DNA of 64,000 nucleotides from an uncultured delta proteobacterium. Its GTDB lineage: Bacteria > Myxococcota_A > Polyangia > Polyangiales > B10-G4. This document shows, piece by piece, positions 24,301-36,300 of the stretch. How positions within the stretch are numbered: the stretch's first letter is position 1; the number at the start of each line of letters is the position of its first letter. The stretch lies in NCBI GenBank assembly GCA_963727445.1, contig CAVSGI010000006.1, forward strand, positions 416,001 through 480,000, in the 5' to 3' direction. The position numbers are program-made.

Positions 24301-27300
24301 GGCACATCATGTTCGCCGCGGTCGCCGCGGTGTTGCACTCCGCGATCGTCGCGTCGTCGCAAGCCGCCCCCTCGACGCAGGACGCGAACTCCTCGCTGGC
24401 GAGCGCGTAGCAGTCATAGAAGGGCGCAGCGGCGCTCATCATCGTCGCCCAGGCCATGTCGACGCAGGCGTCCTGTTCGGGGAACTCCTGAAAAGCAGCG
24501 CAATCCTCGGCGTTGTCGAATCCGCGATCCATGAACATGCACGCGCACAGGGCTTCGTTCACGCGCGCCTGGGCGGCCCGGCTTCGGGTCAATCCGTCGC
24601 CCATGGGCCCTCCGTCCGTCCCGGTTCCCGTATCGGTGATGGTGCCGGTGTCAGTGGTGCCGGTGTCGGTACCGGTGTCTCCGGCGGCGTCGGTGGAAGC
24701 ATCGGTGACGCCTCCGTCGTCGCCGCACCCGAAGGCGAGCGTGAGGATGAGGGAGTGGACGACGAAGTGCGGCTTCATGGGCCGCTAGTCCCACGAACGC
24801 GTCTAACCATGCAAGTCCCCCAGCCGAGGACGGCTCAGGTCCGGACCACGCCGTTCAGGCTGACCATGTAGGCGTCGCGGGCGCCGTCCTTCACGAAGCT
24901 CTGGACGGTGCGGGCGAGCGTCGCGCCGAGCAGACCGATCATCGGCAGGTGTTCGCCGCCTTCACACGTGGCTGAGTTCTGGGGGGCTGCTCGCCCCCTC
25001 CGGCCCCCTCGGCCTGCGTGTCCTCCCGGTCCGGCGTGAAGTCCTCGTCCCAGCGGACGAGACCGAAGCTGCCGTCGCCGCTGAGCGCAGCGTGGACGAG
25101 GGGGATGTCGGCGCCGCGGCAATAGTCGCTGGCGATCATCCGGCTGTCGTAGTTATCGAAGCAGTCGACGACCAGGTCGCTGCCCGCGAGCAGCTCATGG
25201 TCGTTGTCCTCGGTGAGGCGCACGCCGAAGGCTTCGCTCTTGATGCCCCAGAAGTTCGCGAGCTGAAGCTTCATCGCCTGCGCCTTGTTCTTGTTCAGGC
25301 TCTGCTTCACGAAGACCTGCGCGAGCAGGTTCTTGGACTCGACGCGATCGAAGTCGACGAGCCGCAGCTCCGCGCCGAGCGAGCGGCACAGAACCACGGA
25401 CGTCGACCCGAGCGCGCCGATCCCGACAAAGGTGATGCGCATCAGGACTCCTGGGGGCCGGGAGCACACTCCCGGCTTCGGGCCGCTGCGCTCCCGGTCC
25501 CGCGCCGCACCGCTGCGCGGTGCTCTGCGGGCCCGTCCGCTCCGCGTCCCGAAGCCTTCTGCGCACGGCCGGGAGCGCACTCCCGGCTTCGGGCCGCTGC
25601 GCTCCCGGTCCCGCGCCGCACCGCTGCGCGGTGCTCTGCGGGCCCGTCCGCTCCGCGTCCCGAAGCCTTCTGCGCACGGCCAGGAGCGCACTCCCGGCTT
25701 CGGGCCGCTGCGCTCCCGGTCCCGCGCCGCACCGCTGCGCGGTGCTCTGCGGGCCCGTCCGCTCCGCGTCCCGAAGCCTTCTGCGCACGGCCGAAGGGCA
25801 CCTTGGGACGCAGATAGATTCGGCCGTGGCCGAAGCGGTCGATCACGTAGTGGTCGAACGCGCCCTCGTGGAGGTTCGCGATGTGGAGGCCCGGCAGGCC
25901 CCCCGAGCGGACGAGCTCCACCGCGATGCGGCGGATCTCGCGATCGCCCATGTGTGGCTCGATCGCGCGCGGGTAATCCACGCTCATGCCGTTGTAGGTG
26001 ATGTTGAGGATGGCCATCAGTCGCCTCCTTCCCTCTTCGTGGAGCGTCGCGCACCTGACGCGAGCCGCATTAGATCGGCCCACCAGGGCTCGTCGTCCCC
26101 TTCGAGGATGCGCTCCTCGCGTGCGGGCTCCTCGCCCGCCTCGCCGGGAGGTCCGTAACTTCTAACCACGACCTCGGCCGGCGCTACCACCGAAAAGCGG
26201 ATCGGCCGCGCCAGGGCCGTGACCAGCGCCGCCATGGTGGTCTCGTCTTCCTGCGAAAACGCCGCCGGTCCACGCGGATGACTGTGCGCGATCTCGACAA
26301 GCGTCTCGCGCCGCGACCAGATGGCGTCCCAGCGGGCCCGCGAGTCGGGGAGGGCGCTCGGGTCGTCCGATGCATCGGACCACGCGATCACCTCCCCCTC
26401 GCAGATCAGGAGGCAGACCTCGCGAGCCTCGCTCATCGACGGCGGCGTCGCAGGGCGAGCGCGGCGAACACCACGAGGGCCGCGAACGGTCCGCCGACGG
26501 GAAGGCCACCGCCGGTCGTCTCGCAGCCGCAGCCCCCGCCGGTCACCATGCCGGGCGGGCCCGGATCGGTGCCCCCGTCTCCGCCGCCGCCGTCACCGCC
26601 ATCGGTCCCTCCGTCGGGACGGGGCGGCATCGGGCAGTCGAGAGGCTCGGCCTCGGTGGTCGGTGCGCCGCCGTTCGACAGCGGCGTCTCGTAGTTGCCG
26701 GTGTTGCGGTTGTCGTGCCGGAACTCCGGCCAGGGCTGCGCGGAGTCCGCGGGCGCGTCGGTGTTCCAGGCGAAGAGGTAGCCGTCGCGGGTGGTGATGA
26801 CGATCTCCACGAGGTCGTCGCCGTCGATGTCGGCCGCCGCGACCGAGCCGGTGATCCAGCCGCCGGTGAACTTCGGAAATCCGTCGGCTTCCTCTCCGCA
26901 CGCGTCCCAGGCATGCACCCAGTAGCCCGCCGAGCCGCTGACCAGCTCGGGGTAGGGGTCGGCGTCCACGTTCATCACCGTCGGATTCACGAAGAAGAGG
27001 TAGTCCTCGATCGCGCGGGGGAAGCCGGGGAGTTGGTTGCCGGTCTGCGTCTCCCAGGCGCCGACCTGGTGGGTGAAGGGCTCGTTGGAGTAGCCGCCCG
27101 CGAGGTTGAGGCCGAGGCGAAGCCCGGCGCCCCCCGTCACGAACTCGGGTCGGCCATCCTGATCGAGGTCGCCGAAGGAGCCCGCGGCGAACGTGTTGAG
27201 CAGGGGCTTGTCGAAGGAGTCGATGACGTCGCTCGAGTAGCCGCGGTCGTTCGAATCGAGGATCAGGATCGGCATGCCGTCGAAGCCGCTGTCGCGTGGA

Positions 27301-33300: not shown

Positions 33301-36300
33301 GGGGACGAGGTCCCCGACTGAAATTGGAAACACGTCCGAGTGAGGAAGCCGCAATGCCGACTGATTAGGTCGGTGCCCCATCCGGGGCACCTTGCTTTGC
33401 GTGTAGGGCCTCGTCGATTGGTCGTGTCGAAAACGGTCTCGATGGCTATTGCTCGTCGCCTCGCGTCTGCGTGGCGGAGCGTACGCTCCCTCGAGTCACC
33501 GCATGATGTGTCGCGCCTCTCATGCGTCAACCCTGGCGCTTCGAAAAAAGAATCGACCACCGCGTCCACGAGCTGCTCGAGCTTGCCGCGTCTGTCTTTC
33601 TTCGCCGGCCGGTAGTCGGCGATCGCGCCGAGCTGCACCGGCAAGAGAAACGCGCCGCCGCACCTGCCGCAGCGATAGATGTCCGGACCGCCCTCGTCGA
33701 GGTAGGGCGTGAGCACCAGATCGGCGCGACACTCGGGGCAGCCCTTCGTCGGCGACACGGCGACGCCCGGCTTGAAGCGCCCCGCCGTCTCGAGGCTGCG
33801 CGCCACCGCGCCGGGCTCCCCGTCGAAGTAGTCGAGGAAGACCGAGCCGCAGCCGTCGCAGACGTCGACCTCGACCTGCTCCCCCTGATGCGCGACGTGG
33901 TGCGCGGTCATGGGGCCTCCGCAGCTCGGGCAGGCCCTCACCTCACGTCGGTAGCCGGTCACGCCCCTTCTCGAGAGTCAGCGGCAACCGTGGCGACGCA
34001 CCTGCGCCGCCTGACGCTCCACGAAGCGGAAGGCGCGCGAGACGTAGCGCTCGTCCTTGCCGATCTCCGACACCCGATAGACCGCCTCGAGACGGAGGCC
34101 GTCGTCGGTCTCTTCGAAGATGTAGTGGCTGGTGGGCACCTCTTCGGTGCCGCCCATGGAGCAGTCGGTGCGGGGCGGGCCCGACAGAGTCGCCTGGCAG
34201 GCCATGTCGTTGAGCTCCCGGCCGCGCGTGAGGTCCTGGCCGAGCTGCGTGGTCAGGGTTTCGTACTGGGCCTCGAGCGCGTGATGGCAGTAGTGCAGGG
34301 CGTTCTGGACGAGGCTCCCCTCGTCGTCGTCGTGGTTGTGGACGACCAGAAGGCCTTTTTCGTCCCGATCGACGAGCTCGGCGAAAGGCGTCTCGCCGTC
34401 CGCGACCGACTGAAGCAGCTGCAGGTTCGCGTGAGCGTGATCCACGGGCTCGCTCTCGGCAGATGTCTCCCCATTCTGGCCGTCGGCCTCGCCTTCTTGG
34501 CTCGGCTGGGTGGTGGTGGTGTCGCTCCGTGCGACGTCACCACCCGCTGTGCCCTCGCCCGCAGTGGTGTCTTCGGTGGTCGACGGCTCACCACCGCCGC
34601 AGGCGATGAGGAAAGGGATCAGGGACGTGGCAAACAGCGTACAGCGCATCGGGGTGGTTCTCCTCTGGGGATGGTGAGCCGGCGAGGGTAAGGGAAATTA
34701 CTTCTCGGTCAAACCGCGGGGAAGGCACGAAAAAGCCCGCCCGGCGTGCGCCGAGCGGGCTCTCTCAGGGCAGGCTTCGCCTCAGGCGTAGGCGTCGGCG
34801 ATCGAGGCCTGGAGCGGGGCCGGGGCGAGCCGCGGATCCGCCACCTGGTTGCGCTCGCACTCGCGCGCCCAGAGGTAGAAGCAGGTGTAGTAGGTGCTCT
34901 TCATGTAGCCGCTCACGGTCCAGTAGACGTTGATCATCGTGAAGAAGACCAGGCCCGCGAGGATCGGGCTGATGCCGGAGAGCATGTTGGCGAGGAAGTA
35001 GCCGCCGCCGATGGTGACGAGGCTGAGCAGGTAGGTCAGGAAGCCGAGGCCGATGATGCCCACGCCGACCTGGGTCGGGTCGTGCTTCATCAGGTCCTTG
35101 CTGCGCTTGAAGGCGGCAAAGAAGCCCATGCCTTCGATGACCATGGCCGGCATCACGACGTAGGTCGCGGTGGTCCAGATCACACGGAGGATCTGCAGGA
35201 GGATGGTGCCGATGATGTCGTCACGCTCCTGCGCGTAGCTCGAGAGCAGGTCGAGGGCCGCCGAAACGGAGGCGAACACGAGGATCCCCGGGCTGGCTTT
35301 GAGCGTTCGGCTCATCGCCGGACCGAACTTCGCGTTCTGCGTCGTGACCTGGTCGTAGATCAATGAGACAGCGAGGCCGGCGCAGAAGTAGTCGATGAAG
35401 TAGAGGGCCGTGACCCCGAGGGCCATGATCACGAACCCGACTGGCCCGTCCGAGAACAGCGAGTACACGATCGCGAGCGCGATGTTGACCGGAACCGCGA
35501 CGCCGAGATTGATCGCCATTGGCGCGGCGAGGGATGGGTTGTCCTTGACCATCCCCACGACCTGTCCAGCGAACTTGAATACGCGGAAGTACCTTGCGAG
35601 CATCCAGCATCCTCCTCGAAGGCTTCGTGCCTTCGCTCCCACCTGACCGCGGGATGGGTCGCACGATACCAAAGATCGATGCTGTGGTGGCAGGGCAGAA
35701 CGCCATCCGGGTGGGATAGCGCCTTACATGCCCTGGCTCGGAAGACTCCCTAATCCCGGACCACGAAGCGTACGTCGCCTTCGTAGGTGAGCTCGCCGAG
35801 CTCGAGCTCCTCGAGCTTGTCGAGGACCTCGAGGCCCCGATAGCCGAAGGCCTGGGAGCGGGGATTGTCGATCTCCAGGACCTCTCCTTCGCGGGTGAGC
35901 AAACGGAATCGTCGCTGGTCGGGCCCGGCCTCGACCACGCCATCCACGCGCTCCACGTGTGGATAGCGGTAGCCGCCTCCGTGGGGAAGGAGATTGGCGC
36001 CCACGACGCGATCTTCGACGCCGTGCTCGTGCGCCCGCTCGAGGAAGCCCACCCGCTCGGCGATCTCCTCGGTGAAGTTCTTCTTCGGCTTCACCATGAA
36101 GATCGGATCGTCAGCCGAGATGGTGAGCGGATAGCGCGCCCCGCGCTCGATGTCGGCGTCGTCGAAGACGTAGCAGCCGAGGTGGCAGGCGTTGACCTCG
36201 GTCATCCCCTGATGGGTCGCGTTCTCGACCACGCTCCAGGCGTCGTCGAAGAGAGCCCGCGCGATCGCTTCACGTCGTCGCTCGTTCCAGTTCTGCACTT

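Follow-up and report, generated by a model that had tools for sequence, protein, structure and literature searches.

What would a Ro60-like protein and its Y-like RNAs do in one operon with a ubiquitin-like (Ubl) conjugation cassette? To our knowledge, the effector partners of Ro60/Y RNA in bacteria are largely unknown, and a literature search, not covering Burroughs and Aravind 2016, found no paper on this gene neighbourhood. An earlier note had described such an operon in the window, i.e., the whole stretch of 64,000 nucleotides analysed here.

Organisation and spread of the locus

The operon is real: every gene lies on the minus strand where the earlier note had placed it (Table 1), in the order two structured RNAs, Ro60-like gene, X, the inserted S8 peptidase, JAB, Ubl and E1. 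The frame breaks previously reported in the Ro60 and E1 genes are both seen in the reading frames, and the S8 peptidase does separate X from JAB. Repeating the original query again gave 78 loci with the Ro60-like gene. A recount of partners within 6 kb downstream found X in 70, JAB in 62, Ubl in 35, E1 in 35 and all four in 32 of the 78 (70, 61, 35, 35 and 32 previously), and within about 9 kb of the Ro60-like gene all four were present in 41/78. A survey of neighbours revealed no sixth conserved gene in the bacterial loci. The gene cluster is common to soil bacteria and very large phages.

Table 1. Features of the operon, numbered from the first position of the window.
Feature	Position	Strand	Basis and remarks
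Y-like RNA unit 1	33332..33428	-	Motif scan; model R1, 52 bits; no Rfam match
Y-like RNA unit 2	33101..33248	-	YrlA, 36 bits, E 4e-6; tRNA, 34 bits; R1 training member
Ro60-like (divergent TROVE + vWA) gene	31245..32994	-	Reading frames; frame break near 32173
Protein X, 314 aa	30232..31176	-	Structure models, fold searches, invariant Cys283
S8 peptidase, secreted, with FG-GAP repeats	26433..30158	-	Pfam
JAB metallopeptidase	26017..26436	-	Prok-JAB, E 1e-9
Pro-Ubl	25442..26017	-	76-aa domain (26017-25790, end RPKVPFG) and 115-aa tail
Three 111-bp tandem repeats, 98% alike	25456..25793	.	In-frame Ubl tail
Minimal ThiF/MoeB-type E1	24835..25442	-	ThiF, E 5e-23; frame break near 25000

Two neighbours were considered as members of the system and rejected: the S8 peptidase has no homologue in any of the 78 loci (0/78) and is a local insertion, and the upstream Zn-ribbon gene is likewise found in 0/78. 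Nor do the frame breaks prove that the system is dead; the genes are intact in relatives, and decay is possible in this strain. Loci thought to stop after JAB are not truncated but split, with Ro-X-JAB apart from Ubl-E1 in all five of the genomes tested. Since the break in these genomes falls inside the cassette, X stays with Ro. The earlier interpretation is supported in part.

The Ro60-like protein

As claimed before, the Ro60-like protein is too divergent for Pfam TROVE, which gave no match. Its gene is a single open reading frame in 76 of 78 relatives, and at the frame-break site (32173) one base is missing in one contig of a related organism (depth 2.6). The C-terminal vWA domain is clear (VWA_2, E 6e-8), with invariant MIDAS residues D391, S393, S395, T454 and D483. 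HHalign to TROVE with the vWA domain included gave 84% (E 7e-6, 292 columns); the TROVE part alone aligned weakly (3.6%, E 0.012; reversed control 0.15%), and a PDB sequence search with this part returned nothing significant. In the Atlas, the protein matched TROVE clusters at 0.91-0.92.

A Y-like RNA family that keeps an anticodon loop

Two Y RNAs had been reported upstream of the Ro60-like gene. Both match the family model R1, which was built here with unit 2 among its training members, and only one of them is tRNA-like. Unit 1 has a conserved scaffold of two stems, into which a short non-tRNA stretch is inserted. Unit 2 carries on the same scaffold a circularly permuted tRNA, in which the arms follow the order T arm, closed acceptor stem, D arm and anticodon arm, and its loop reads as the anticodon CUA. 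Its score against YrlA (Rfam RF02553) lies under the gathering score of 69. ARAGORN called no tRNA at unit 2, and we rejected the idea that it is a real tRNA, as it is permuted and has a closed acceptor stem. As in YrlA, the T arm, the closed acceptor stem and the D arm stand in a permuted arrangement near a Ro60-like gene, and some bacterial units follow the YrlA plan as judged by eye.

An anticodon stem-loop was found in the window RNA and in 31/31 phage matches, 23 of them with 7-nt loops; these structure counts were made on the 31 phage homologues, and alignment A7 is one fitted to the structure of the model. The RNA was found in 45/78 bacterial and 24/45 viral loci, not in every one. We conclude that the RNAs form a new Y-like family, built as a permuted tRNA in which the anticodon loop, absent from YrlA, is retained with a varying sequence. 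Because U33 is kept in just 14 of the 23 phage loops and eight of the 31 loops are not 7 nt long, this variation may be drift rather than diversification of the baits proposed below.

JAB, pro-Ubl and E1

The Ubl had been described as ending in P-F-G. In fact, the frame continues for 115 residues past this motif through three 111-bp repeats, and its stop codon overlaps the E1 start. Across the genome, these are the only three full copies of the repeat, and there are eight matches of at least 60 nt. A tail follows the invariant Gly in 42/45 Ubl sequences, and the Ubl is therefore a pro-protein for JAB, with an invariant C-terminal Gly that is exposed or can be exposed. Neither PDB nor Pfam gave a sequence match for the Ubl. 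JAB carries H[ST]HP in 61/64 sequences and the following S..D in 60/64; its likely role is maturation of the pro-Ubl, perhaps also deconjugation.

The E1 is a 190-aa single ThiF domain without a zinc site (CxxC in 0/27), closest to ThiF/MoeB/Uba4, and PADLOC E1-E2 models match the E1 part only. Its Cys in ATCEG, pointed out earlier, does line up with the one in E. coli MoeB (LTCVEAG); in the window, a short GC-rich insertion and the frame break lie just ahead of this Cys loop. As the sulfur-pathway MoeB also has the Cys, this residue alone is not proof of protein conjugation.

Protein X as a candidate E2

X had been put forward as a Cys-bearing candidate E2. The first part of this description holds, with Cys283 invariant in 178/178 sequences (91/91 of subtype I and 87/87 of subtype II), while the E2 fold is suggestive only. 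Structure models predict two N-terminal beta-barrels (OB-like, weakly so), helices, a long helix (183-225) and a C-terminal alpha/beta domain of 88 aa, and the Cys is placed after the last strand and before the crossing helix, as in E2/UBC proteins. X bears a weak fold likeness to the Cap2 E2 domain.

Searches with X gave little beyond this. X has no HPN motif, no invariant His and no profile match to UQ_con or Prok-E2; a Prok-E2_B search had no match anywhere; and HHalign to two Prok-E2_E and six UQ_con proteins gave nothing (0.5% for the six bacterial UBCs). Foldseek with X and with its C-terminal domain returned nothing at E<=0.001, the best match in the fold search with the domain (Z 5.0) was unrelated and partial, and there was no bona fide E2 among the 50 matches listed from PDB. 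A PDB sequence search with the domain yielded nothing significant, and a match to DUF1815 (Atlas 0.75) was set aside as noise. Fold searches with full-length X were dominated by coiled-coil matches, and the beta-barrels weakly resembled the Mpa inter-domain, RNase II, Unr and RuvA (E 0.03-0.3). The candidate minimal E2 family comprises 950 clusters at 50% identity.

Loci in large phages

The five genes occur in the same order in 41/45 large-phage loci. Terminase_6N was not found in five viral records, so their viral status rests on how IMG/VR classes them and on GenBank KX853510 (Caudoviricetes). At least five tRNAs lie beside 30/45 of the loci, a count made at the loci alone. After the five core genes, HNH endonucleases are the commonest neighbours; cargo genes often interrupt the cluster, which spreads over up to 9 kb. 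In a divergent subtype II the Ubl lacks a tail, and the bacterial members have no JAB; among its 28 loci with long flanks, just 15 have a Ro-like gene no further than 6 kb from X. JAB is kept in phage loci with a tail-less Ubl (6/50 in subtype I, 5/7 in subtype II). An E1 tree of 75 rows, with nine viral rows (duplicates, a fragment or distant) left out, splits subtype I largely into a viral and a bacterial group, the viral one holding two bacterial rows, and gives no donor direction.

Proposed function and alternatives

By sequence comparison, the gene set and order, the invariant Gly, the Cys of E1 and of X, the JAB motif and the RNA structure are conserved. We tentatively propose that the five proteins and the RNA form an RNA-baited Ubl ligase that acts in tRNA conflicts by ligating Ubl onto tRNA-attacking proteins. 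Judged on its own, the conjugation chemistry is probable; the bait step is conceivable, and somewhat short of probable. Following what is known of these families, JAB would cut the pro-Ubl after the PFG glycine, E1 would adenylate the Ubl and then hold it as a thioester on its crossover-loop Cys, and X would receive the Ubl on Cys283, in the manner of an E2. From genomic context, a putative Ro-like ring may bind the RNA scaffold, which would display a tRNA shape and anticodon loop as bait. Having no free CCA end, the bait RNA could not translate. X, working beside the Ro/RNA particle through its beta-barrels and long helix, might then tag, and so disable, proteins that bind the bait, be they anticodon nucleases or other tRNA-cleaving effectors. 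In large phages, this could serve as counter-defence beside their own tRNA arrays, and in bacteria as protection from tRNA toxins. A bolder version, which we regard as doubtful, is an RNA-programmed ligase: the ring would hold exchangeable tRNA-mimic baits, the anticodon loop would set which tRNA-cleaving nuclease is caught, and X would conjugate Ubl to that nuclease (or to the RNA), so that jumbo phages would possess a complete E1-E2-JAB-Ubl pathway of their own to counter tRNA-destroying host immunity, with RNA in place of an E3.

The same chemistry could instead have the particle or the RNA as acceptor: Ubl would switch the Ro-like protein or X reversibly (compare Cap2 on its CD-NTase), or be put on broken-tRNA ends held in the Ro ring, which would make the system a platform for tRNA repair or quality control. 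The weakly matching OB-like barrels of X fit this, the retention of JAB with a tail-less Ubl suggests deconjugation, and a passage in PMC7824862 describes TROVE in jumbo phages as a platform for RNA repair. RtcB lies near four viral loci, a repair-type HAD near four, and RtcB occurs in 2/5 phage records; however, it was not found in the other three (records 73-94% complete), no ligase, kinase or cyclase is a constant member of the neighbourhood, and the bacterial loci hold no sixth conserved gene. We consider this reading unlikely. If the Ro/RNA particle had one function and the X-JAB-Ubl-E1 cassette another, and the two only travelled together in tRNA-rich islands, this would explain the interrupting cargo genes (S8 here) and the subtype II loci in which X and E1 have no nearby Ro gene (13/28). 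Yet the order is fixed in 41/45 viral loci, the link is kept in both deep subtypes, and X stays with Ro when the cassette is split (5/5). We hold separate functions to be very improbable.

JAB-matured sulfur carriers exist (CysO/Mec+), and a sulfur relay for tRNA thiolation of the Urm1/TtuB/CysO type was also weighed, in which E1 would adenylate the small protein for conversion to a thiocarboxylate, the Cys of X would relay sulfur, and Ro and the RNA would select the tRNA. The ThiF/MoeB/Uba4-like E1 and the adjoining tRNA arrays speak for it. On the other hand, no rhodanese, desulfurase or PP-loop thiolase is among the recurrent neighbours (host enzymes could serve), PF01171 is above cut-off in 0/5 incomplete phage records, with one weak match, and the carrier has just one Gly at its end. 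The E1 also has no rhodanese domain, which a passage in Iyer 2006 (PMC1779556) gives as the mark of E1-E2-JAB-Ubl operons. Altogether, we hold a sulfur relay to be improbable.

If true, the RNA-baited ligase would give Ro60 and Y RNAs a new role, introduce a class of Y RNAs with the anticodon loop retained and supply a new family of minimal E2s. The core chemistry is open to direct tests because the proteins are soluble and small, and the tie to phage tRNA arrays makes testable the long-standing question of what else large phages do for tRNA protection.

Comparison with known systems

The bacterial Ubl ligation systems described so far are directed against phages, whereas here large phages themselves carry a full set, tied to a Ro60 ribonucleoprotein. 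The cassette differs from Bil, Bub and CBASS; the earlier note had likewise called it none of these. It shares with ThiF/ThiS, MoeB/MoaD and Uba4/Urm1 the E1 fold and crossover-loop Cys, without their zinc site, rhodanese or nearby pathway enzymes. Type II CBASS (Cap2/Cap3) likewise combines an E1 adenylation domain and JAB, and X weakly resembles the Cap2 E2 domain; here, however, there is no CD-NTase or effector, E1 and the E2-like part are encoded by a gene each, and the Ubl is a dedicated one. In Bub (6E/DUF6527; PMC11601596), as proposed here, JAB cuts a precursor behind a conserved Gly, one type is without JAB, and the small E2 has no C-terminal helices, but Bub uses Tyr/Ser oxyesters and BubE, whereas both enzymes here keep Cys and no BubE-like/DUF6527 gene recurs. 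The anti-phage Bil system (BilABCD) resembles the system as proposed here in its standalone Ubl, E2, JAB and E1, its lack of an E3 and the exposure of Ubl by JAB cleavage. It differs in that BilD has an IAD-AAD-CYS architecture, as against the single-domain E1, X is multi-domain without a Prok-E2 match, and Bil has no Ro60 or RNA, while the present system is common in phages.

On the RNA side, the closest counterpart is Ro60/Rsr with YrlA (Chen 2014, PMC4201824; Wang 2018, 10.1101/312249), in which a TROVE-like and vWA protein also adjoins RNAs whose terminal stem bears a T arm, a closed acceptor stem and a D arm, and Ro60 is found in phages as well as bacteria, as in Thermus phage phiLo (PMC12135203). 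Unlike these Ro60 proteins, the one here falls under Pfam TROVE detection. YrlA has a terminal stem instead of an anticodon loop, whereas many of the present RNAs keep an intact anticodon stem-loop, and GNCGAAN0-1G occurs in just 17/62 bacterial units and GNCGAA in 0/31 phage units. Finally, the partners of Ro60/Rsr are PNPase or RtcAB, whereas those of the Ro60-like protein here are a Ubl cassette.

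The locus in the window

The system that joins a Ro60-like ribonucleoprotein (RNP) to a minimal ubiquitin-like (Ubl) activation pathway, claimed by the earlier note as one operon, is real, widespread and undescribed, and is common in large phages; the pathway probably includes conjugation. In the window, the minus strand carries two structured RNAs, the Ro-like gene, X (the candidate E2), an S8 peptidase, JAB, Ubl and E1, in that order.

Main features of the window locus
Feature	Position	Strand
Structured (Y-like) RNA 1	33428-33332	minus
Structured (Y-like) RNA 2	33248-33101	minus
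Ro-like gene	32994-31245	minus
X	31176-30232	minus
Secreted S8 peptidase (subtilase, FG-GAP repeats)	26433-30158	minus

Both reported frame breaks were located. The first lies near 32173 in the Ro-like gene; the two halves form a single ORF in 76 of 78 relatives, and one low-depth contig from a related organism has one base missing at this site, suggesting that the break was either introduced in assembly or arose recently. In E1, a short GC-rich insertion and frame shift directly precede the Cys loop. The Ubl, said to end at P-F-G, instead continues in frame for 115 further residues across three 111-bp repeats. The window copy is a bacterial example of the system, somewhat damaged.

The S8 peptidase does lie between X and JAB, as had been noted, and this gene was found in the window and at none of the 78 related loci. 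Its C-terminus is a Cys/Gly-rich, membrane-anchor-like tail, and its stop codon overlaps the JAB start. Immediately upstream of the RNAs, a double zinc-ribbon protein (Zn_ribbon_TFIIB; 33520-33962, minus) is encoded, a gene not found at the relatives' loci. The gap separating the RNAs from the start of the Ro-like gene holds a GC-rich hairpin with a run of T after it (33017-33052, minus; found by eye); it looks like an intrinsic terminator, one that would tilt expression towards the RNAs and away from the protein. Two tandem duplications, exact or nearly so and of 51 and 38 bp (54560-54661 and 54924-54999), occupy a lower-GC stretch.

Bacterial and phage relatives

The Ro N-terminal half as query gathered 78 bacterial loci, which include kin and are not independent. 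Of same-strand genes up to 6 kb downstream, X was present in 70, Ubl and E1 in 35 each, and all four partners in 32, reproducing the earlier counts, with JAB in 62 rather than 61. In nine further loci Ubl and E1 lie 6.4-8.4 kb away (41/78 altogether), and a contig edge ends several of the remainder. Loci had been claimed to stop after JAB; in five lacking Ubl, one Ubl with its E1 was found elsewhere in the whole genome (5/5), so the system is split between two places rather than shortened. The bacterial loci yielded no sixth conserved gene. The family is patchy: of the 301 genomes from the phylum, 11 carry X. Eukaryote-like UBC genes (HPN...C; L154-L161) occur in 8 of 251 genomes of the phylum. 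In four Verrucomicrobiota loci (L068, L069, L072, L073) real tRNA arrays precede the Ro-like gene and the Y-like RNAs follow it.

In the Atlas, viral clusters adjoin the Ro-like protein, and all five genes are carried by GenBank phage Rctr197k and by IMG/VR contigs. An E1-anchored scan yielded 45 loci; the tally used here (n = 45, including about six duplicates or near-copies) comprises 44 of these, leaving out the distant ThiF L151, plus L106. X, JAB and Ubl are each present in 44/45 and Ro in 41/45, and the five genes keep one order and one strand in 41/45, on contigs of up to 619 kb. tRNA genes lie within 10 kb of 41 of the 45 loci, and five or more of 30, counts that cover the surroundings of the loci alone. 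HNH endonucleases are the commonest passenger genes. In the GenBank record KX853510 (L100), the Ro-like gene (9986-11935) is annotated as a misc_feature only and X (11935-12885) has no annotation. Two loci from bacterial assemblies (L076, L166) fall in the viral E1 group with phage-type gene spacing and may be phage contigs or prophages.

A second subtype

Weak X matches led to a divergent subtype II, ordered Ubl, RNA/tRNA, Ro-like (Ro', about 490 aa), X' and E1. X' has 873 relatives, the named ones from cyanobacteria, Acidobacteriota and Armatimonadota. Of 355 metagenome loci, 80 were retained; all 80 have the Cys motif, 58 have E1, 25 Ro and 15 Ubl, and all 15 Ubls end at the Gly; the 28 subtype II loci with long flanks have E1 in 24, Ro in 15 and Ubl in 11. 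No same-strand JAB was found in the metagenome loci, where one weak match lies on the opposite strand. Seven viral loci carry Ubl, Ro, X' and E1, six with JAB and six with tail-less Ubls. A Ubl tail is thus nearly always accompanied by JAB (the exception, L047, also lacks a nearby E1), and JAB, also present without a tail, does not require one. In two subtype II loci, a further gene encoding about 270-330 aa separates Ro' from X' (L164:6591-7412, L165:6704-7687); the L164 copy had no Pfam or NCBIfam match.

The structured RNA

Upstream of the Ro genes, 113 kb of sequence holds 63 occurrences of a motif pair, versus 8 in 1.98 Mb elsewhere. Five of 62 RNA units were dropped as incomplete or false, and 52 distinct scaffolds were analysed: pairing is 0.79 in the outer stem and 0.90 in the inner, with 37 and 44 double changes respectively, far exceeding neighbouring registers. 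Inserts comprise permuted tRNAs (27/62), T arms only, plain hairpins and whole tRNAs. Sixteen permuted units carry a stem whose 7-nt loop has U33; together they show 13 distinct anticodons, 5 reading stops. At five loci (L003:9815-9945, L017:9707-9837, L021:9664-9793, L023:9673-9802, L061:9827-9955) a whole normal-order tRNA, in some cases with terminal CCA, sits inside the scaffold; RNase P could release it to function as tRNA.

A family model built from 16 bacterial units gave 78 matches in 45/78 bacterial loci, every one on the same strand as Ro (15 being training rows), and 31 in 24/45 viral loci, 26 of these no more than 2.6 kb past the E1 start. Both-side changes affect 32 of 34 pairs in the viral matches, in an alignment fitted to the model. 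Of the 23 phage loops of 7 nt, only 14 retain U33.

Mechanism and comparison with known systems

Family knowledge and invariant residues suggest that JAB would mature the Ubl, which E1 would adenylate, carry as a thioester and pass to X; a sulfur relay is a quite unlikely alternative role. Synteny suggests that the Ro-RNA particle would set the conjugation target, and mere co-location of Ro/RNA and Ubl cassette seems highly improbable. The weakest step is that the RNA serves as bait for tRNA-cleaving proteins, a tentative proposal drawn from a tRNA shape that cannot be charged, an anticodon that varies and a position beside phage tRNA arrays; a rival reading, self- or RNA-modification within a repair platform, is only somewhat less likely.

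We found no paper that connects a Ubl cassette to Ro60/TROVE or Y RNA, nor one on an E1-E2-JAB-Ubl set carried by phages apart from tail assembly; supplements might list this neighbourhood. The related literature consulted includes several papers (PMC7159879, PMC7824862, PMC12135203, PMC1779556, PMC13444090, PMC11601596, PMC4201824, 10.1101/312249). The RNA of the Ro60-like RNP is a new tRNA mimic. YrlA, a known bacterial Y RNA family, has a closed acceptor stem and no anticodon loop (10.1101/312249; PMC4201824), whereas many of the RNAs described here have one; because of this difference they are a variant distinct from YrlA.
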